A stretch of 62,586 bases of DNA, filler included. It is 10 parts of 10 records of this genome, joined end to end, with 100 filler letters (N's around TTAATTAATTAA, not from the genome) between each part and the next. Parts side by side here need not be neighbours in the genome. Positions count along the whole stretch, not along the records: positions 1 to 6,892 come from SRR31147125_63081; 9 more parts are not named here. One strand, written 5' to 3'. The translations under genes were made by a program, and so were the position numbers. Positions 1-9,140 of the stretch are shown in pieces. Every line of letters begins with the position of its first letter. The stretch's first letter is position 1. Under the pieces are notes generated by a model. That model had not been told where the DNA came from. It searched no databases and worked only from the letters and a program-made list of their open reading frames with translations.

Positions 1-537
1 TTTTATAAACTCTGGTTGAAAACCTGCATGATGAAAGCTGTAAAAAAGTGCGGTAAGAATTATGCCTGGAATAATACCAAAAGACTCATCAAAAATTTTT
101 CTCAGAAATCCATATATAAAAGTCATCTCAAAAATACCTGCAACAAATATATATGTTATTGGTATTAATGCTTCCGGACGCAACAAAACTTTTTGACCAA
201 TATCTTTTGAGTCACTTAAAAACTGTAGTAGTAAAAGACCCATAAATACAACACTAAAAATCAAACTTAATTTCCATTTTTTCTTTGTTAAACCGAAAAA
301 TTCAACACCCTTTTTTTGCTTGACTAATACATATTGAAGAGGAACGAAGAATCCAAGAATAACTTTGATAATAAGGTCTAAAACGATAAAGAAAACTGCC
401 TTGTTAAATGCAGTTTCTGCTAAAAATAGTCGAAGAAAAAAACTTAACCCAACAACTATAAATCCAAGCAGGAAAGCCATTTTAGTATCATTTGTAAAAT
501 CAAATCTTATTGATAAAAGTTGGTTCATTTTTCCCAT
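1..537 (-). CDS. CPBP (CAAX protease/Abi) family intramembrane metalloprotease, 3'-truncated at window edge; cassette 1
   Basis: Not in ORF track. Manual translation from ATG 537 (GGAGG at 546-550) is open to base 1: MGKMNQLLSIRFDF...AGIFEMTFIYGFLRK...ILTALFYSFHHAGFQPEFYK. Hydrophobic, with a variant EExxxRG motif and FxxxH motif. Confidence 0.75.
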   Translation of the reverse strand, partial: MGKMNQLLSIRFDFTNDTKMAFLLGFIVVGLSFFLRLFLAETAFNKAVFFIVLDLIIKVILGFFVPLQYVLVKQKKGVEFFGLTKKKWKLSLIFSVVFMGLLLLQFLSDSKDIGQKVLLRPEALIPITYIFVAGIFEMTFIYGFLRKIFDESFGIIPGIILTALFYSFHHAGFQPEFIK

Positions 538-567
538 ATCATAAACCTCCTAAAAAATTGTAATAGC

Positions 568-688
568 ATATAACGTTCCCGATGTGCCCCTTTGGGTCTA
601 TTTCATATACTCTATTTTAACATTTAAGGCATGAAAAAGCCCCTAATTATGTCAATTCAAGGGCATGTTGGGAACGCTCGTGTTATAA
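568..688 (-). repeat. attC-like recombination site 1 (121 bp)
   Basis: Minus strand TTATAAC...GTTATAT ends; arms (plus strand) GTTCCCGATGTGCCC / GGGCATGTTGGGAAC; lies between co-oriented genes. Confidence 0.75.
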
Positions 689-868
689 GATGGTGGTTGA
701 CGGTTTCTCTATACGCATACACACTACCATTTATAAATAAAGGCGTTGGAGAAACGTGCTCTTGAGTTACACTTACTCATGTTGTACTACTCTCAAATAC
801 TATATGTGGTTTATTTTCACCATAATCTATGTTCAAGCATGTTCAAAATACTTATTAAGTCTATGAGA

Positions 869-1507
869 TTACCATATTCCTGGTATTAACCGATTGGTTC
901 TCTTCATATAACTCACGTACTCAGGAAATTCATTCTGAAGAAATTCCTCTTCAACTTTTATTCTCCATACAAATGTCAATATTGTAATCAGCGATAAAGT
1001 CAAACATAAGTAAGAACTTAGGACTAAAGGAAAACCAATTACCTGTACAATATTTCCCAAGTAAGCCGGGTGACGGATTTTCTTATAAACGCCTGAGTCA
1101 ATAACTCTATGATTATTCCATTTTTCAACGTCTCTTGAAAAGAAATTGCCTAATGTTCTAATGCTAATTCCTCTAAAAAGTGTGCCCGTACACACCATTG
1201 TTATTCCAACCATAGTAACCAGGAGATTTTCTCGACTATAAACTAAATACTCTATAATTGGACTCAGGATAGCAGAAAACCAACAAATCGCTAAAGCATT
1301 ACTCGTGTTCTTACTCACGACTTGATTTTCACTCTTTTGTCCACGATAAAAGAACCTGTCCGAAAGCAAACTAATCATCACTAAACATAGATAAAATTGG
1401 ATAATTGTATTGTTTACCTTAAAACCAAAACGTTGAATATTTATCAATATGAAAGTCATTATTACAGCTGTTACAATTCTAATAATTATACCGATGTTCT
1501 TATTCAT
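869..1507 (-). CDS. Isoprenylcysteine carboxyl methyltransferase (ICMT/Ste14) family membrane protein; cassette 2
   Basis: TLGNFFS...GVYKKIRHPAYLG...IKVEEEFL...YVSYMKRTNRLIPGIW motifs. ATG at 1507 follows AAAGGGAG (ORF track uses upstream TTG at 1540). Confidence 0.85.
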   Translation of the reverse strand: MNKNIGIIIRIVTAVIMTFILINIQRFGFKVNNTIIQFYLCLVMISLLSDRFFYRGQKSENQVVSKNTSNALAICWFSAILSPIIEYLVYSRENLLVTMVGITMVCTGTLFRGISIRTLGNFFSRDVEKWNNHRVIDSGVYKKIRHPAYLGNIVQVIGFPLVLSSYLCLTLSLITILTFVWRIKVEEEFLQNEFPEYVSYMKRTNRLIPGIW

Positions 1508-1865
1508 AACAGGACTCCCTTTCAAAGCTAGTCTACACAATTTATCATTTTAAACTACATTAAGTATTGCGTACGACCGAGTATTGTTTTTAGTTACTGC
1601 TAATTTGAAACTCGTAAAAATAAATAACACATGAAGCTTTTCAGTTGCATAGCAATATAAACTACAGGCTTCTCAAACTGTTTACTTTAGTTGAGTTATG
1701 TGTTGCTAATTTAACTGCTTGATATATATTCAACATTTGTAATCCAATAGCTTAATATATGTATGAACTTTTTCAATGTTTGCAAATCCCCTCATTGTTC
1801 AGCGTGATTATGGGCCAATAACTTAAGTTTAGCAACACTTCAGTCTAAATCTCGATGACTGTTTC

Positions 1866-1939
1866 CCATAACGTCACGTGAACTTACGATGTGGACACCC
1901 TTCCTTGTTCCTGTCCATGTCGCAAGTTCGCTGTTAGAT
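1866..1939 (-). repeat. attC-like recombination site 2 (74 bp)
   Basis: Minus strand ATCTAAC...GTTATGG; 20-bp imperfect stem GTGAACTTACGATGTGGACA / TGTCCATGTCGCAAGTTCGC; starts 28 nt after the upstream stop codon. Confidence 0.85.
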
Positions 1940-1967
1940 GCAGTCCATAATCGTTAACACTGCTCAA

Positions 1968-2867
1968 CTAAAGGTATTGCCGAACCATCTCTACTAAGTC
2001 TTCAGGGTATTCATGTGACATTCCTTCAAGATAGTTTCGCTTATATTCGAAACCTAGCGCCATAGCTCTCTCTTCAAACAGTCTGCATTGCGGCATACAA
2101 TCCTCATTCAACTCGCCACAGATTAAAACAGTGTCTATACCTTTAGCTTTTAGAGCCATAATAACTTCATCACACATTGCTTCTACAATAGGCATCCACG
2201 GAGAAAATAAAATAACACTATCGCACTTAAATCCATCTAAAGTTATTGCTCTTAGAATAGTATTGCATCCCGCCGAAAAACCTGTTAATACAGTCTTGCT
2301 ATACACTTCTCCTTGGACCTTCTCAAGTGAACAAATCAGTTGATCTGGACCATCTCCTTCATCACTCCATCTATAAATCTGATAAGAATTTATCTCGCTA
2401 GATTGTAGGTACTCAATCTGATAACTTGGTATAATTAATTCGGACCAAAAAGCTCTACTAATCTCATTGTTCTGTTGGTTCCCATGTAAGATTACGAGAA
2501 GATTATCATCCTTCTTCTTCTCCCATGAGAAAACAGTCCTTGTGTTCTTCAATTCTTGTTCATATCTATTATTCGATATTTCAACACATGACATGAAATC
2601 GCTATGATTACGAATAATATCTAGATCATCATCTTCGAACACTTCAGGGCGATACCAAAGTCTCTTATCTATCACAGCTTCTTTAAGCCAATTAATGGCT
2701 TCATCAGTCTTATCTGATGTTGCCGCCAAGCAATATAAAAAGTTATAAACCTGACTAGACCACTCATCATCACGAATCAGGTTAGAAGCTAAATACTCGT
2801 ATGCTTTAGTCGTTCCATTGTCATCTATCAATTCTAAAGTTGCATCTAATAACTTTGTCTCTGTCAT
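1968..2867 (-). CDS. Alpha/beta hydrolase with helical (TPR-like) N-terminal domain; cassette 3
   Basis: VILHG, nucleophile elbow GFSAG (GxSxG), C-terminal GMSHEYP His. Confidence 0.75.
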   Translation of the reverse strand: MTETKLLDATLELIDDNGTTKAYEYLASNLIRDDEWSSQVYNFLYCLAATSDKTDEAINWLKEAVIDKRLWYRPEVFEDDDLDIIRNHSDFMSCVEISNNRYEQELKNTRTVFSWEKKKDDNLLVILHGNQQNNEISRAFWSELIIPSYQIEYLQSSEINSYQIYRWSDEGDGPDQLICSLEKVQGEVYSKTVLTGFSAGCNTILRAITLDGFKCDSVILFSPWMPIVEAMCDEVIMALKAKGIDTVLICGELNEDCMPQCRLFEERAMALGFEYKRNYLEGMSHEYPEDLVEMVRQYL

Positions 2868-2904
2868 AATATTCCTCTTTCTTTTTACCCAGATTATGGA
2901 TTGC

Positions 2905-2966
2905 TGCTAACGGATTTACGACCAAACCGACGTATGGTTTTCATGTTGGTTGTCGCTGTGTTATCT
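2905..2966 (-). repeat. attC-like recombination site 3 (62 bp)
   Basis: Minus strand AGATAAC...GTTAGCA; arms CGACCAAACCGACGT / ATGTTGGTTGTCG; shares TAACGGATT and GGTTTTCATG with site 4. Confidence 0.8.
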
Positions 2967-3046
2967 ATTGATGTTAATCAGCTTTGCTTATTATTTATCT
3001 AAATTACATAAACTTTTTGGTTGCTATCAATCTATTTATATCAGAA

Positions 3047-5125
3047 CTATGTTTTAGACCAAAATAGAAATGGCTCGTCAGCTTGCTTAATAGAAACAGT
3101 AATATTTTTATCCAAATATTTTGAATGATTACAAGTTATATAATTTTCATGGCATAAATCACACTGTGCATTTTCGATTAAAAAGGCACTAGAAGGTTTA
3201 ATTATTCTACTTTGAAGTTGCTCAAAGATATCAATCTCCTCATCAGGAATTTTTAAAAGATATTCAACTCCATTATTTGTATATCTATACTTATACCAAT
3301 CTGGATTAACTGCTATCCTTTTAATTTGCAATACTCCAGAATTTTGAATTGTTGAATAATCGAAACCAGAATAATTGAATTGATTCAATTCCTCAGAGAG
3401 TTTATCTAAAAATAATCCTATTTTATAATTTTGAAGTGGAAATTCATCTCTATACTTTACTAAAAAGTCTTGTATATTTAATGTATTTCCGTAAAAAGAC
3501 ATTCGAACTTCTTTGTTTTCAATAATCCAAGCTAAAGTAAAGGAAATAAATTTAAACTCCATTTCCGTATTATTTATAATTGATATTAATGCATCAAAAG
3601 TTTTTTTCATTTTAGTTTTTAAATTTATTTTACCATGATGGATTATAGGTAAATCAAGGATTGAATCATCAAATTTAATGAATTTAACATTTTGAGGGAT
3701 TTCAATATTTTCACTATAATTCTTTAGAATTTTAATAAACTCTATAGCATGAAAATTCATTACATAGATATCATCTTCAAAAGTCCATTTATCCAATACA
3801 ATAATTTCTTTATCAATGCCTATATATTTTGTATTTATTTTACTATATGAAATAAACACTCTAAAGCCTTCATTATCTTCTATTTTATGAGGAATGATAT
3901 CTAAAGTACTTAAAAACTCATTTTTCTCGAAAGATTTGCTTGATTCGCTAAAAGTTTTTTCATTAATCTCTTCCCCAAAATATTCTCTTATATTGTAATT
4001 GTCTTTATAGTAATGAATCACTAAATTTTTCCATTGGTCTATTGAAATCTCTCCATCGATTCGAAATAATTTATTGTAATCGGAGTTTTTCTTTGCGTGA
4101 GATATGTCAGTGTCATTTCTTTCTAGCATTTTAATTTCATCATAAATCTTTATTGCTCCATCAAAATGTTCTAAGGAGTTGTTTTCAAAGTCATATATTG
4201 TGTGAATATACTTGCAACTATATTTATCATTAGATATAGATTTATTTGGTTGAAGCAATATTTCCTCAACTTCAAATTCTAATTTGTTTTCTTTTTTATT
4301 GTTTTTCCACCAAAACTCAGTACGGTCTAAGCCATAATAATATTCATCAAGTTCATTTGCCTTATAAACAGTTACCCCTGTTCTTATTTTATCAATTTCA
4401 ATGTTAAATTTTGGTCCTCTCCAATATTCAAGCTCGCTAACGAGTTTCGAAGTAGGGTGATAACCAATCATATTTTCATCCAAAGCTAATCTAACATTAA
4501 GTTTATTATTTCCATAGCAATTTAACAATTCATCAAGGAAAAAATAATTAAAATTATTCTTATTTGATAGAGACCTTCTAAAAAATTTGTGTGCAAATAT
4601 AATCCAGTTTGCATTTTTCAGCTTAAACTTACCTTGACCTATATATTCAAAATTATTTAGTAAGTCTTTTAAATATATTAAGTTATTTTTGTCTTTTTTC
4701 TCGAAAATATTTGGAAAAGCTTTTTTAGCAATAAAAGTATCCAAGATAGAAATACAAGAGTTGTTTACTATTCTAAACTTATCACTAATATGTTCTGAAA
4801 AATCCTGAAAGAAAATACTTTTATATTTTTCACTTAAATTATTTTCTTTTTGTTTTTCAATGTTTTTATAATGATTTGCTAAATTGTTGAACTCTTCCTT
4901 TGTCTCACATAAGTAGTTTTCACCCAGTGTTATAGATAAATTTGGAGTAATCAAAATTCCGATTGGCATACTCCAACCTATTAATTTTGTAAAATCATGA
5001 TTTAAAAGTAATGGATTACCTTTAAGAAAAGTTCGATTATAAGCATCTTCAAGAGCTTTGACTGTAAAACGATAATTATATTTATTTGTTTTGTCAGTGT
5101 TCATGATAATCCTTGATATATTCAT
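3047..5125 (-). CDS. Hypothetical 692-aa protein with prohead-protease-like N-terminal motif and C-terminal CxxC-x6-CxH; cassette 4
   Basis: Long AT-rich ORF filling the space between two attC-like sites; motifs GNPLLLNHDFTKLIGW and CDLCHENYITCNH. The ORF is secure, the function is not. Confidence 0.7.
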   Translation of the reverse strand: MNISRIIMNTDKTNKYNYRFTVKALEDAYNRTFLKGNPLLLNHDFTKLIGWSMPIGILITPNLSITLGENYLCETKEEFNNLANHYKNIEKQKENNLSEKYKSIFFQDFSEHISDKFRIVNNSCISILDTFIAKKAFPNIFEKKDKNNLIYLKDLLNNFEYIGQGKFKLKNANWIIFAHKFFRRSLSNKNNFNYFFLDELLNCYGNNKLNVRLALDENMIGYHPTSKLVSELEYWRGPKFNIEIDKIRTGVTVYKANELDEYYYGLDRTEFWWKNNKKENKLEFEVEEILLQPNKSISNDKYSCKYIHTIYDFENNSLEHFDGAIKIYDEIKMLERNDTDISHAKKNSDYNKLFRIDGEISIDQWKNLVIHYYKDNYNIREYFGEEINEKTFSESSKSFEKNEFLSTLDIIPHKIEDNEGFRVFISYSKINTKYIGIDKEIIVLDKWTFEDDIYVMNFHAIEFIKILKNYSENIEIPQNVKFIKFDDSILDLPIIHHGKINLKTKMKKTFDALISIINNTEMEFKFISFTLAWIIENKEVRMSFYGNTLNIQDFLVKYRDEFPLQNYKIGLFLDKLSEELNQFNYSGFDYSTIQNSGVLQIKRIAVNPDWYKYRYTNNGVEYLLKIPDEEIDIFEQLQSRIIKPSSAFLIENAQCDLCHENYITCNHSKYLDKNITVSIKQADEPFLFWSKT

Positions 5126-5168
5126 TTAAGGTTTCCTTTCAGTTGTTTTAAAAAAGCTGGTTTTTTTC

Positions 5169-5230
5169 AGATAACGGATTGATGGTTCAGATGCCGTGCG
5201 GTTTTCATGGAATCTGCCGCTCTGTTATGT
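5169..5230 (-). repeat. attC-like recombination site 4 (62 bp)
   Basis: Minus strand ACATAAC...GTTATCT; arms CAGATGCCGTG / CATGGAATCTG; starts 6 nt after the ATPase stop codon. Confidence 0.8.
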
Positions 5231-5236
5231 ATAGCA

Positions 5237-6838
5237 TTATAGCTTTAAATCTGAATAATATAGAAAACCTCTTTTAGCATTACTTCTTAAATCATTTTGA
5301 ATATATTTTACTAAATTTTGAGGATTCATTAATCTATAGTAATATGCAATAGAAATATCTATAAGGAAAATAGAACCAATTGGAGAAGAGATGTTAGAAG
5401 AGATATTTTTAACTCTTCTTGTTCGATTCAGGTTATGTACAATTCCTCTATAAATCAAATTGCCAATTTTTCTTTTATCTAGTCTACTTAGACTAATAAA
5501 TACATGAATTGGTGTTTTTTTATCTTTTTTTTCATTTTTTGTTTCTGTTGATGTATTTCTTTGCATTAATTTTGGGACTATTTTTCCTTCTAAAATCTCT
5601 AAATCTTCATCGCTTAAATGACTTTCATTTAAAATTTCATTATCAACAATAGTTTGAATGGCTGTTCCAATAGTATTAAAATCTAATTTTTTGATTTTAT
5701 TTTCAGATGCAAATTTTTTCTTTCCATTCTCATAAGCGGTGTCTAGTATTTGAAAATATCTTCGAGGTAAACCGTTAGACGCAAAAGCTGCAAGTAAAAA
5801 ACTTTTCTCATCTTCAAATAACCAAAGTATATCTCCGCTAGATTCAGGAGCATATTGCTCAAGTCTTTTTTTAGTTAGATATTTATAAAATAATTCAAAT
5901 TCATCAGTTAAAATATCCATTTCTAAATATTTCATAGTGCAATCTTCTCCAGAAATGAACTCAAATTCATCGCCTTTTGAGATAGAAGGATAATGTGTAT
6001 TATTTGGAGGATAAACTCCACCAATAAAATACATACTATTTTCCTTTAAGGAAGTCTCGTTACTTGAACGAATTAATTTTAATAATCTAAAAATTTCTTT
6101 TTGTTTTCCTTTTGATACTCCAGAAATTTCATCAATAAGAAGAAGACTATAATCAATTTTTAAAATCTCTTTTAAACTTTTAAAAAAACTAATAAGATAT
6201 TTTGAAGAATTTTTATGTGCTAATTGTTCTAAAACATATTCGAATTCATTCTCTTCTTTTTTCTTTCCACTTAAAGTTGCAATTGATTTTTTTAATCCTG
6301 CTGAAATTTCTTCACTATCTTTATTAATTACTTTTATATTTCCACTATATAATTTTTCATTTAAATCTTTAATCAGTTTATCTATTTTATTTAAGAATAC
6401 ATCAAAATTCGTTTCACATAAAAATGGGAAAATAGGGAGTTCTTTTTCAAGTGCAGTTAACACAAAAGGATTTGCTCCTTCCTCAATAATTTTTTGATTT
6501 TCTTTTATAGTTATAACCATATTTTCAACAATACTTGTATATAAATGAATTCTAAATTCTTCTTCCCTTAAAGTTTCATATTCTGAATACCTAGCTAATG
6601 AGATATAAACAGGAAGAACTCTTTTTACAGAAAAATTTTCTAAAACTTTTTGTCTAATAACTTTTAAAATATGTGTTTTCCCTGTTCCTCTAATTCCTTC
6701 TAAAAGGAGATTTTCATTATTTTCTGTAAGTTCATCAATATCCAAACCAATATCGGCATGAGTAACATAATTAAACTTTGTTTGAGCATCTTTCGAAAAA
6801 AACTCGTTATTTATTTCAATAAATCCCAATATAATCAC
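5237..6838 (-). CDS. P-loop ATPase (ORC/CDC6- or STAND-like AAA+); cassette 5
   Basis: Walker A LLLEGIRGTGKT, Walker B LLLIDE, ASNGLPRRY (GxPR) motif. The real start may be TTG at 6829 given RBS spacing. Confidence 0.75.
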   Translation of the reverse strand: MIILGFIEINNEFFSKDAQTKFNYVTHADIGLDIDELTENNENLLLEGIRGTGKTHILKVIRQKVLENFSVKRVLPVYISLARYSEYETLREEEFRIHLYTSIVENMVITIKENQKIIEEGANPFVLTALEKELPIFPFLCETNFDVFLNKIDKLIKDLNEKLYSGNIKVINKDSEEISAGLKKSIATLSGKKKEENEFEYVLEQLAHKNSSKYLISFFKSLKEILKIDYSLLLIDEISGVSKGKQKEIFRLLKLIRSSNETSLKENSMYFIGGVYPPNNTHYPSISKGDEFEFISGEDCTMKYLEMDILTDEFELFYKYLTKKRLEQYAPESSGDILWLFEDEKSFLLAAFASNGLPRRYFQILDTAYENGKKKFASENKIKKLDFNTIGTAIQTIVDNEILNESHLSDEDLEILEGKIVPKLMQRNTSTETKNEKKDKKTPIHVFISLSRLDKRKIGNLIYRGIVHNLNRTRRVKNISSNISSPIGSIFLIDISIAYYYRLMNPQNLVKYIQNDLRSNAKRGFLYYSDLKL

Positions 6839-6859
6839 TTCCTTTAAAATTTCAATTGT

Positions 6860-6892
6860 ACATAACGTTGAATGACATAGATGAAGTGTGGT
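6860..6892 (-). repeat. attC-like site 5, truncated by contig end
   Basis: Plus strand ACATAACGTTGAATGACATAGATGAAGTGTGGT parallels site 4 (AGATAACGGATTGATGGTTCAGATGCCGTGCGGT). Its core GTTATGT is exactly complementary to ACATAAC at the other end of the same cassette. Confidence 0.7.
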
Positions 6893-6992
6893 NNNNNNNN
6901 NNNNNNNNNNNNNNNNNNNNNNNNNNNNNNNNNNNNTTAATTAATTAANNNNNNNNNNNNNNNNNNNNNNNNNNNNNNNNNNNNNNNNNNNN
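6893..6992. other. Artificial contig linker (first of nine; others 13662-13761, 19280-19379, 24792-24891, 30448-30547, 36198-36297, 42757-42856, 50024-50123, 56869-56968)
   Basis: Identical 100-nt N-run/TTAATTAATTAA/N-run with stops in all six frames; composition and gene content change abruptly across each. Confidence 0.98.
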
Positions 6993-7140
6993 CGCAGGCG
7001 AGTTTTGCGAGCGCAGCTTGAAGCGCTGGAATGGAGGGCACCCGAAGGGCAAGACATCCGGGTGCGTTTCTTTGGTTACTTTGTTGTCGCATAACAACAA
7101 AGTAACATGGCGTGCGAGGCCATAACCCCGCGACCCTGAT
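6993..7140. repeat. Intergenic palindromic (REP/MITE-like) element, truncated at contig start
   Basis: Perfect 13-bp stem GTTACTTTGTTGT-cgcata-ACAACAAAGTAAC (7075-7106), preceded by GCACCCG...CGGGTGC hairpin. Confidence 0.55.
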
Positions 7141-7167
7141 TGACATTTTCGTGTTAAAGGGAAAAAA

Positions 7168-7665
7168 CTAAACGGCCTTCTTCCGGGCAATACACAAGCA
7201 CTCCCCTTCGGCAAAAATCGTCTCTCCGTCACGAATGGCACCGTGAACCATGACTTTACGGCCATCGACCGAAACAATTTTACTGTCAACAGTCACAACC
7301 TGTTCCAGCGGTAACAGGTTACGAAAACTGATATTGAGGTTGCCGACAACGACGGGATAACCGGCGGTCCAAGCCGCCAGGCCGAGCACTTCATCCAGAA
7401 CCGCGGCCATGGCCCCACCATGAGCATGTCCCGGAGGGCCTTCCGTTTCGGGACCGAACCAGATTCTGGCGCGCAGCAGCCCTTCTTGGTTTTTATAATA
7501 CCGGACCCGGTAACGGTTGCCGTCCCCTTCCCCGGACACGAAACGGAGTGACGCACCCACCAGCGCCGGAGCATCAAAGGGGGTCCAGTCCGTCTCACCG
7601 GACAGGTCAACCTGTGGTCGAATTTCTTCTTTCATCGTCTCTCCTCCCATATTCATCTCTGCCAT
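7168..7665 (-). CDS. PaaI family (hotdog-fold) thioesterase
   Basis: EGPPGHAHGGAMAAVLDEVLG motif. Confidence 0.88.
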   Translation of the reverse strand: MAEMNMGGETMKEEIRPQVDLSGETDWTPFDAPALVGASLRFVSGEGDGNRYRVRYYKNQEGLLRARIWFGPETEGPPGHAHGGAMAAVLDEVLGLAAWTAGYPVVVGNLNISFRNLLPLEQVVTVDSKIVSVDGRKVMVHGAIRDGETIFAEGECLCIARKKAV

Positions 7666-7690
7666 AACAGCTGAGTGAAAAGCACAGAAT

Positions 7691-7720
7691 AAAAGGGCCG
7701 CTGGTGCTCAGCGACCCTTA
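7691..7720 (-). terminator. Rho-independent terminator after hisE
   Basis: Stem AAGGGCCGCTG / CAGCGACCCTT with a T-run on the minus strand, about 20 nt after the hisE stop. Confidence 0.6.
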
Positions 7721-7741
7721 TCAACTTTTTGCAATCACCGT

Positions 7742-8086
7742 CTACTTGCTACGGCTCTGTTTTTCCTCAATCCCCGACAGTCCGAATCGACGCCGTAGTT
7801 CAGCGTAAATCTGTTCAGGTTCTATTTCATAGTATCCCATCAGCACAAGGGTATGGAAAAAGAGATCGGCGATCTCATAAACGACCTCTTCCCTGTCCCC
7901 ACCTTTACCGGCGATGGCAGTTTCGGTTGCTTCTTCACCAACTTTACTGAGGATTTTGTCGAGGCCCTTATCAAACAGGGACTTGACGTAGGACGTCTCA
8001 CCATCGGCCATTTGCTTACGTTCAAGGACAATCTGGTAGACCGCTTCGAGAATATCCTGATCGGATTTGACAGTTTCTTCAGCCAT
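7742..8086 (-). CDS. hisE: Phosphoribosyl-ATP pyrophosphohydrolase
   Basis: SYVKSLFDKGLDKILSKVGEEATE...YEIADLFFH; start taken at ATG 8086 after AAGGA. Confidence 0.93.
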   Translation of the reverse strand: MAEETVKSDQDILEAVYQIVLERKQMADGETSYVKSLFDKGLDKILSKVGEEATETAIAGKGGDREEVVYEIADLFFHTLVLMGYYEIEPEQIYAELRRRFGLSGIEEKQSRSK

Positions 8087-8105
8087 TGATCTTTCCTTTG
8101 GGGGG

Positions 8106-8873
8106 TTAAATTCGAGCCGGAACGCCATTTTCCTTCAGGTAGTTTTTACATTCAGCGATGGTGTATTCCTTGAAATGGAAGATCGACGCCGCCAGTGCCG
8201 CGCTGGCACCTCCCTCGACCAGACCTTCGCGGATATGCTCGAGGTTGCCGACACCACCGGACGCGATCACCGGTATCTCGACGGAATCACTAACCGCACG
8301 GGTCAGTTCAATATCATAACCGTCCTTGGTGCCGTCACAGTCCATCGACGTCAGTAGGATTTCACCGCAGCCGTAGTCTTCCATCTTCCGTGCCCATTCA
8401 AGCACGTCGATCCCGGTCGGCTTACGACCGCCGTGGGTGTAGATTTCCCAGGCCTGCGGATCGGAGCCTTCAACCCGGCGCGCATCAATGGCAACAACAA
8501 TACACTGACTACCAAATCGCTCCGCCGCATCACGGACGAATTCGGGGTTGAACACCGCTGCGGTATTGATCGATACCTTGTCGGCCCCGGCATTGAGCAG
8601 GTTGCGGATATCACTGATCTCGCGCACCCCGCCACCGACGGTCAACGGCATGAAAACCCTTTCGGCGGTCCTGGAAACGACATCAAGGATAATTCCGCGA
8701 TCGTCACTGCTGGCCGTAATGTCGAGAAAGGTCAATTCATCCGCCCCTTGGGCGCAATAAGCTTCAGCCGCCTCAACCGGATCACCGGCGTCACGCAAGC
8801 CAACGAAGTTGACACCTTTGACCACCCGACCGTCTTTGACATCGAGGCAGGGAATAATTCGTTTTGTTAACAT
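8106..8873 (-). CDS. hisF: Imidazole glycerol phosphate synthase cyclase subunit
   Basis: [37 protein letters not shown]. Confidence 0.97.
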
Positions 8874-8887
8874 TTCAATACCTTCTT

Positions 8888-9140
8888 TTCACCACAGAGG
8901 CACAAAGACACGGAGAAAAACAAATAAAACCAAACACCCAAAAGCTTTTCAGCCACAAAGACTCTAAGATCTCAAAGAAAAACAAAGCCAATTACCTGTG
9001 ACGGAGAGGCGCGAAGACGTAGAGAAAGGTCGTTTTCTCGATTTAAAACCATAACAAAAGCTTTCTGGCCGTTCTCTGAAATCTCTTCAACTTCCGCGGT
9101 AAAAAAGCCTTTCTTGGTGTTCTTCGTGTCTTGGTGGCTA
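8888..9140. repeat. Nested palindromic intergenic repeat (hisA-hisF spacer)
   Basis: ACCACAGAGGCACAAAGACACGGAG, GCCACAAAGACTCTAAGATCTCAAAG and inverted CTTGGTGTTCTTCGTGTCTTGGTGGC; same motif families in three other spacers. Confidence 0.75.

Follow-up and report, generated by a model that had tools for sequence, protein, structure and literature searches.

A Probable Integron-Type Gene Cassette Array on an AT-Rich Contig and Its Relatives in Clostridia

Introduction

Integrons are the main gene-capture platforms of Gram-negative bacteria. Considered here is a contig of 6,892 bases, positions 1-6892 of a 62,586-nt stretch of DNA (hereafter the window), which is very probably a fragment of an integron-type cassette array: genes in single file, each followed by an attC recombination site, of the type that in Clostridia and other Bacillota is found beside a short tyrosine recombinase.

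For the classical attC site, the part of the literature drawn on here gives a size of 57-141 bp, extrahelical bases beside the L'' box, which the integrase contacts, and an unpaired central spacer, 5-6 nt long on either arm (PMC5027507). In the same part of that source, the attC sites found in mobile integrons show very little similarity in sequence, classical integrases recognize structure, not sequence, and the Vibrio cholerae superintegron has 179 cassettes (PMC5027507). For Firmicutes, no complete integron is given in the part of the 2016 IntegronFinder survey used here (PMC4889954); the corresponding part of the 2022 IntegronFinder 2.0 paper gives one, in Limnochorda pilosa, and a few clusters of attC sites lacking integrases, or CALINs (PMC9024848); and a review, in the passage relied on here, counts Firmicutes among the phyla with detected integrons (PMC8618304). 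The Petrocella paper uses “integron” loosely, for integrated plasmids. No publication was found that links recombinases without the IntI-specific insertion to clostridial cassette arrays, in a search that did not cover supplementary tables, which may list such arrays as CALINs.

The window consists of ten unrelated contigs of 5.4-7.2 kb, separated by nine linkers of N runs with TTAATTAATTAA, a six-frame stop linker; the first N run begins at 6893, and the finding is confined to the first contig. Since the ten are unrelated, the neighboring contigs tell nothing of its host. The remainder (6893-62586) is heterogeneous, with for example hisF at 8106-8873, and is unusable for naming a host. An earlier note, made from the sequence alone, had described the contig as an AT-rich, apparently non-proteobacterial piece of an integron-type array. 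Its GC content is indeed the lowest of the ten (29.5%, the other nine having 31-52.4%), and its named relatives are Bacillota, so that “non-proteobacterial” has the support of these relatives.

Sequence Models and Comparison Sets

Site limits are given from the R'' 7-mer to the R' 7-mer. Covariance models were used after a heuristic palindrome scan proved too noisy or too strict. The first, R1, was made from an alignment of 16 68-bp sites of G002, a Vallitaleaceae metagenome-assembled genome (MAG) with a 5.0-Mb chromosome; the second, R2, from 17 attC sites that belong to four types and come exclusively from other genomes. Species-representative genomes were scanned with three recombinases of related arrays, yielding at least 580 relatives, of which the 80 best loci were retained. 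The comparison also took in further contigs of the single public sequencing run in which the contig occurs, possibly its source; these do not constitute independent evidence. A second run, X2, yielded nothing.

One Cassette with Different Neighbors

An open reading frame (ORF) scan of the contig found five long ORFs, all on the minus strand; the attC sites of the contig are designated A to E (Table 1). The gene that ties the contig to other genomes is ORF3, relatives of which were found in 14 genome loci. Two of these are in Vallitaleaceae (Clostridia) MAGs: locus L001 of genome G001, with 79% amino acid identity, and locus L002 of G002, with 60%. In both, the ORF3 relative is flanked by attC-like sites. 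By blastn, L002 covers window positions 1869-2912 and L001 covers 1913-2914; the homology thus spans one cassette, running between the TAAC cores of sites B and C and ending at the G/TT junctions. The crossover at site C is placed at its TAAC because the homology ends there. The attC body upstream of ORF3 is unrelated in the three arrays, with 62 bp in the contig, ~128 bp in L001, and 68 bp in L002. The ORF3 cassette is imported from, or shared with, a Vallitaleaceae-type array, and the contig adds a case of a cassette common to arrays with different attC types. As a separate observation, the L001 array (G001 contig C4) itself mixes 128-bp and 75-bp attC types at 5835-9096.

The direction of the cassettes follows from the same comparison. 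ORF3 travels with the downstream site B, and the preceding junction is at a core near the gene start, which makes the minus strand the top strand and the plus strand the bottom strand; the polarity of the contig is that of the classical arrangement. The opposite assignment, in which the plus strand would be on top and each gene would run antisense to its attC site, was suggested by the left-arm extra bases of sites C and D, and was dropped because the cassette travels with site B and has its upstream limit at the TAAC of site C.

Elsewhere, Fusibacter ferrireducens has an ORF3 relative directly 3' of an attC, and the flanks of the relative in Brassicibacter mesophilus look attC-like. In nine other genomes (eight Clostridia/Bacillota and one Spirochaetes MAG) the relative is an ordinary gene; with its occurrence as a cassette in arrays, this makes the ORF3 family both resident and mobile. 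In three of the nine (L003, L004, and L005, from two Clostridia MAGs and Petrocella sp. FN5) the relative has the same downstream neighbor and no attC.

These results bear out the reading of the contig as an integron-type array. Gene order has not been kept, ORF3 alone among the five recurring by tblastn in the related arrays compared; there has been shuffling at G/TT, ORF3 and site B having different neighbors in L001 and L002 and the cassette limits lying at the cores; and the palindromes are not genome-wide, the best three R2 matches in the window being sites B, A, and C, and the G002 matches listed lying in one locus. The observation stands confirmed, and the sequence comparisons support an integron-type reading of it.

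attC Sites and Their Cores

As the earlier note had it, the genes are separated by imperfect palindromes of 62-121 bp bounded by TAAC...GTTA (sites A to D). Each follows a minus-strand gene, all have one orientation, and their sizes lie within the 57-141 bp range; all five cores retain TAAC and GTTA. Folded as the plus strand, site A has a 15-bp basal stem with three G.T pairs. Sites C and D, similarly folded, combine a 7x4 internal loop with 2 bulged nt on the 5' arm; equal in length, with a common GGATT spacer, a common GGTTTTCATG loop, and different stems that still pair, they are of one type, probably the one local to this array. Surplus unpaired bases lie on the bottom-strand 5' (R'-L') arm in B, C, and D alike, and none of the three has single-base bulges on the 3' arm. 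The combination of a TAACG/TGTTA R box with a 5'-arm surplus is found in B (strongly), C, and D, and not in A. The array of the contig mixes at least three attC types. Site D is accepted on the strength of its resemblance to C, its location, and cores that match at 3/3 positions to either side; the core of the truncated site E is complementary to the R' flank of D at 5/6 positions.

The cores quoted in the earlier note are correct: GTTATGT/GTTATGT, GTTATCT/GTTATCT, a 14-mer pair agreeing at 11/14, and GTTATGG/GTTATAA. The true flank pairing of the four complete cassettes gives the highest complementarity among all 24 permutations, a score reached by 1/24 when 3 or 6 bases beyond GTTA are counted and by 3/24 with 10 bases. 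Within the contig alone (n = 4) core complementarity is weak evidence; in the G002 array it is clear. There, over 69 consecutive cassettes, the cores of the same cassette match at 5.14/6 positions on average (34/69 perfect), against 3.37/6 (2/70 perfect) for core pairs of the same site and 3.05/6 for random pairs, R'/R'' complementarity within a cassette being the trace expected of a circular intermediate cut at G/TT. The statement that cores match across the same cassette and not its neighbor therefore holds, as the best of 24 arrangements in the window and clearly in G002.

The bare motif is a poor guide, the pattern TAAC-N40-70-GTTA being common (42 in the window, 24.6 expected); structure and position carry the evidence. 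A sixth site at 1625-1698, proposed as a decayed attC that would make 1699-1871 a gene-less cassette, is unsupported: its fold z scores are -1.0 and -0.2, its core agrees with the site B flank at 3/6, and it has no R1 or R2 match at E<=10. Three metagenome-contig matches to the C/D motif are attributed to chance, having no hairpin and no R2 match.

The Site B Family and the G002 Array

Around L002, near-identical 68-bp sites occur every 0.6-1.5 kb. On the G002 chromosome at least 150 sites match R1, over ~161 kb; among the matches listed, all are on the plus strand, at 3,449,730-3,610,793. A regular expression finds 70 sites in 60 kb of the array. A clostridial chromosome here carries an array that matches the Vibrio cholerae superintegron in scale. 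Site B belongs with these sites, being 80-87% identical to many of them; R1 gives it 73.6 bits (E 5e-19) on the plus strand, vs. 18.6 bits on the minus strand, and has no other match in the window.

Folded as the bottom strand, the 68-bp family shows a TAACG/TGTTA R box, 4 bulged nt on the 5' arm facing 0-1 nt on the other, and 19-20 bp of stem without interruption. Compensatory double changes occur in 9/24 pairs; several G.U pairs are invariant or common, and these become A.C mismatches if the top strand is folded. The R2 consensus has the same R box, with 6 unpaired bases on the 5' arm vs. 3 on the 3' arm, and compensatory changes in 8/17 pairs; some Fusibacter sites have one extra base on the 3' arm. 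Run on the whole window with filters off, R2 gave 12 matches, the best three being B at 53.9 bits, A at 21.5 (E 0.0077), and C at 18.0 (E 0.059), all three on the plus strand. Predicted folding energies also favor the bottom strand (-21.5 vs. -15.7 kcal/mol for a G002 site, -30.9 vs. -25.5 for a Fusibacter site). In the 68-bp and R2 families, bottom-strand folding is thus selected, and the G.U pairs and energies give indirect support to single-strand recombination of a folded bottom strand.

A Short Recombinase Beside the Related Arrays

The G002 array (locus G002:C1:3,449,730-3,612,940) ends 1.1 kb from the gene for a 336-aa tyrosine recombinase (L015:1219-2229), which lies on the minus strand, as do the cassette genes, with its 3' end facing the array. 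Between this gene and the first attC, the first gene is split into overlapping frames of 118 and 242 aa (L015:116-1143); this may be a frameshifted first cassette, and is phosphotransferase-like by eye. Orthologs of the recombinase, ~50% identical, head co-oriented arrays on G001 contig C11 and on Fusibacter ferrireducens contig C15, where six attC sites follow 3' of the gene, down to the end of the contig. Reading of the sequence from the recombinase stop to the first attC in G001, G002, and G003 defined no attI.

The G002 enzyme is the best match to integron-integrase models in its genome, and is below every curated cut-off: 202 bits for NF040815 (XerA-type; cut-off 220), 187 for TIGR02249 (265), and 113 for NF011946 (435). 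No protein above the TIGR02249 integron-integrase cut-off was found in any of four genomes (G001-G004). Compared with solved structures, the G002 recombinase aligns end-to-end with Pyrococcus XerA, and with VchIntIA (2a3v) in two pieces, 18 query residues facing 60. Set against IntI1 of plasmid R100, it is short by ~41 residues where the IntI-specific insertion lies; both enzymes have the catalytic R, K, HxxR, H, and Y, together with a C-terminal PLD.L motif. The distance from K..KDR to HxLRH is 59 residues in the three query recombinases and in 25 of the 26 relatives examined (of 80), the remaining one not fitting the pattern; in IntI1 it is 100. An integrase of the kind that defines a complete integron, with the IntI insertion and a score above the family threshold, is found neither in the window nor in the related arrays. 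Two of the three recombinases (Fusibacter L035:5862-6989 and G002 L015:1219-2229) share an N-terminal extension of ~50 residues, and that of G001 has a different N-terminus. A HARP-like N-terminal domain was considered and rejected: PF07443 matches the Fusibacter enzyme only, at E 0.013 and 15.5 bits (cut-off 25), and the other two not at all. An enzyme of this kind may serve the contig as well, and the array there may be active.

Arrays directly 3' of a short recombinase and co-oriented with it were found in G002 and 13 further Bacillota/Bacteroidota genomes. At E<=0.1, R2 has 34 matches in 11 of the 80 recombinase loci, and all 34 are downstream of the recombinase gene on the co-oriented strand, with none in the 8 kb upstream. 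Fusibacter sp. 3D3 has 10 and the chromosome of Desulfitobacterium sp. Sab5 nine; Arundinibacter and Saccharibacillus have three each, Flavobacterium and Pedobacter two each, and Halonatronum, Pseudopedobacter, Chitinophaga, a Bacteroidales MAG, and Paenibacillus one each.

Genes of the Contig

That the contig has five genes on one strand was confirmed, as was, by Pfam, that they are unrelated; all are intact. It is also cut at both ends, as described, with ORF1 running off the left end and site E cut at the right. ORF1 has no Pfam or PADLOC family. For ORF2, an ATG start near 1507 is more likely. Its leader, at 1541-1868, is non-coding; it may have a regulatory role, or may be what is left of a gene-less cassette in decay. 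ORF4 has relatives of no more than 36% identity, patchily distributed over Bacteroidota, Campylobacterota, and Proteobacteria. Those of ORF5 are mostly from Bacillota and named ORC-CDC6 family ATPases, with PF24389 found in relatives; a Clostridium sp. protein is 51% identical to it. Defense annotation of the contig yielded a single weak PADLOC match, mad8 for ORF5 (E 3.4e-4).

Table 1. Genes, cassettes, and attC sites of the contig (window coordinates).
Feature	Position	Strand	Length	Description
ORF1	1..537	-	179 aa read so far	Membrane-protein-like; start codon at 537, 3' end beyond contig; gene of last, truncated cassette, own attC beyond left end
attC site A	568..688	-	121 bp	Closes ORF2 cassette; TAAC 571-574, GTTA 682-685 (+ coordinates)
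ORF2 cassette	574-1871		1298 bp	Leader ~330 nt
ORF2	869..1540	-	223 aa	ICMT/PEMT-type membrane methyltransferase; Pfam PF04140 (E 7.6e-18), PF04191
attC site B	1866..1939	-	74 bp	Closes ORF3 cassette; + strand is bottom (folding) strand
ORF3 cassette	1872-2910		1039 bp	
ORF3	1968..2867	-	299 aa	Alpha/beta-hydrolase-like N-terminal domain; Pfam PF22316 (E 4.6e-29)
attC site C	2905..2966	-	62 bp	Closes ORF4 cassette; crossover TAAC at 2908-2911
ORF4 cassette	2911-5174		2264 bp	
ORF4	3047..5125	-	692 aa	Conserved protein, function unassigned; no family by Pfam/PADLOC
attC site D	5169..5230	-	62 bp	Closes ORF5 cassette; architecture as site C
ORF5 cassette	5175-6865		1691 bp	
ORF5	5237..6838	-	533 aa	ORC/Cdc6-family ATPase; AAA ATPase by Pfam
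attC site E	6860..6892	-		R' end only (TAAC 6863-6866); belongs to cassette upstream in array

The earlier note had also taken the contig to be a fragment of a larger array. Other contigs of the same run (6.0, 9.2, and 15.9 kb, at depths of 28-35 vs. 27) share 30-37-base pieces with sites B, C, and D, which favors this; coming from the same sample, they give only a hint that a larger array was broken up by assembly, with more of its cassettes assembled separately. An apparent circle in the same run proved to be another contig, with D-like and C-like pieces 1.8 kb apart.

Proposed Mechanism and Alternatives

If the contig is what it appears to be, each minus-strand gene would be followed by its own attC, the plus (bottom) strand of which would fold into a hairpin. 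A tyrosine recombinase would cut the folded bottom strand at AA/C of the R' box (G/TT on the top strand), and the cassette would be excised as a circle and re-inserted at the docking site beside the recombinase's own gene. Judging by the related arrays, the enzyme would be related to IntI and Xer and would lack the IntI-specific insertion, with the array directly behind it and in the same direction. For such an enzyme, the bulge next to R' may take the place of extrahelical bases as the mark of strand polarity.

A number of results weigh against placing the contig with the short-recombinase arrays. No tyrosine recombinase is found on it, where the earlier note too had seen no integrase, or elsewhere in the window (best tblastn E 0.18), so that its link to the short recombinase depends on one cassette and on site B. 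R1 has no match to sites A, C, and D, which are therefore not members of the Vallitaleaceae family; the R2 scores of A and C are marginal, and D, at 10.5 bits (E 4.3), is at noise level. Site A has its 6 unpaired bases on the 3' arm, opposite to B, C, and D, and the plus and minus strands of the contig's own sites fold about equally well. The C/D-type attC motif has 0 matches in the genome contigs collection. ORFs 1, 2, 4, and 5 have no tblastn match in the related loci fetched, and ORF5 gave no locus in the genome contigs; movement as a unit is seen for one of the four complete cassettes (ORF3 with site B). Finally, 69 of the 80 recombinase loci have no R2 match; many of their contigs end <2 kb from the gene and the model is narrow, and these loci are uninformative, neither supporting nor refuting an association.

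Three other explanations can be weighed against these and the preceding results. That the palindromes are terminators or repetitive extragenic palindromic (REP)-like repeats between genes of fixed order, with core matches arising by chance, could be argued from the frequency of the TAAC-N40-70-GTTA pattern, and from the limit of 1/24 that four cassettes set on any permutation test. This is already contradicted, and its probability is close to nil: none of the contig's palindromes is followed by a T run, the only terminator-like sites found (three, on the plus strand) are inside genes and not at any of the five attC sites, the ORF3 cassette recurs with other neighbors and limits at the cores, and the related family has both covariation and, in 69 consecutive cassettes, cassette-specific complementarity. 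The contig might otherwise derive from a classical integron or its CALIN, a canonical IntI elsewhere serving sites A, C, and D, and the site B cassette being foreign. The three or more attC types would then be unremarkable, given the low similarity described for mobile attC sites and the recognition of structure rather than sequence by classical integrases (both from the part of PMC5027507 cited above); C and D are of the classical ~60-bp size, and the TAACG...TGTTA R box is common to the aadA1 attC of R100. However, the extra bases of B, C, and D are on the 5' (R'-L') arm, vs. the classical 3'-arm bulges of aadA1; nearly all relatives of ORF3 and ORF5 with a name are from Bacillota, a phylum credited with one complete integron in the cited part of the 2022 survey (PMC9024848); and all four genomes with related arrays are without a protein at the integron-integrase cut-off. 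A classical origin is therefore improbable.

A real array that has become an inactive relic, a CALIN served by no recombinase in its host, is unlikely too, if a possibility to be taken seriously. There are partial parallels in G001, whose second array (C4, L001) is on a 655-kb contig with no tyrosine-recombinase match, and at the crossover core of one L001 site (7562-7636) GTTAG is replaced by ATTAG; the long ORF2 leader of the contig, with its decayed-looking palindrome, may be a degraded cassette. Against this, the five ORFs are intact and their cores unspoiled, and same-run contigs at similar depth (again, not independent evidence) carry pieces of B, C, and D sites beside other sequence. 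A fragment of a short-recombinase array of the Clostridia/Bacillota type thus remains the strongly preferred reading; formally, the contig is an integrase-less attC cluster, which its closest relatives assign to a variant class of integron-like systems of Gram-positive anaerobes, distinguished by the short recombinase, co-orientation, and a changed attC geometry.

A broader proposal, held with only slightly more belief than doubt, is that these arrays form a separate, unrecognized branch of integrons in Gram-positive anaerobes, with a short recombinase lacking the I2 insertion, mirror-image attC hairpins, arrays of superintegron size, and exchange of cassettes across lineages, reaching into Bacteroidota. 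If true, this would explain why Firmicutes have seemed nearly integron-free, since the integrase test requires the insertion, and the taxonomic range of integron-like gene capture would be much wider than catalogued. Arrays of Clostridia, Desulfitobacterium, Paenibacillus, and Bacteroidota would then run without the domain thought essential for reading attC hairpins, a natural exception to the rule that extrahelical bases and the IntI insertion set strand choice. Many CALINs and hypothetical regions of anaerobe genomes would be cassette banks, some perhaps with defense genes, such as the ORC/Cdc6-type ATPase of ORF5.

Comparison with Known Systems

The class 1 integron In2 of R100, used as a calibrator, has the same general site plan, with a TAACG...TGTTA R box, a hairpin, and the attC after the gene. 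The details differ. With the same folding tool, the aadA1 attC shows a near-symmetric spacer and, on its 3' arm, two bulges of one base each, its strands differing little in stability (-18.8 and -18.3 kcal/mol), whereas a G002 site has a 4-nt bulge on the 5' arm, none on the 3' arm, and a bottom strand more stable by 5.8 kcal/mol. R2 finds only the R box of the aadA1 attC, at 8.7 bits. The classical attC geometry is not that of the site B family, nor of C or D, and the IntI1 segment of 100 residues corresponds to 59 in the clostridial enzymes.

CALINs, as described in the part of the IntegronFinder survey used here (PMC4889954), resemble the contig in having several attC sites in a row with no integrase nearby; the absence of an integrase here, however, could be due simply to the contig being 6.9 kb long and truncated on either side. 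The same part of that survey describes an inverted group of integron integrases, in certain Treponema spp. for example, that are co-oriented with their attC sites (PMC4889954). Co-orientation of this kind is found in G001, G002, and G003 and 11 further loci, the difference being that the inverted group is described as integron integrases and the enzymes here are without the IntI-specific domain. Inverted-group integrases carry this domain.

Sedentary chromosomal integrons, such as the Vibrio cholerae superintegron, are a further close parallel. The related arrays differ from them in occurring in Bacillota, with a recombinase that is co-oriented rather than divergent and has no IntI insertion, and attC sites with a 4-6-nt R'-L' bulge and no L'' extrahelical bases; the contig's own fragment differs further in its mixed attC types. 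Shared, on the other hand, are long one-way, promoter-poor cassette arrays in which an attC with a folding bottom strand comes after each gene, crossover at G/TT, R'/R'' complementarity within the cassette, and attC sites homogeneous within an array.

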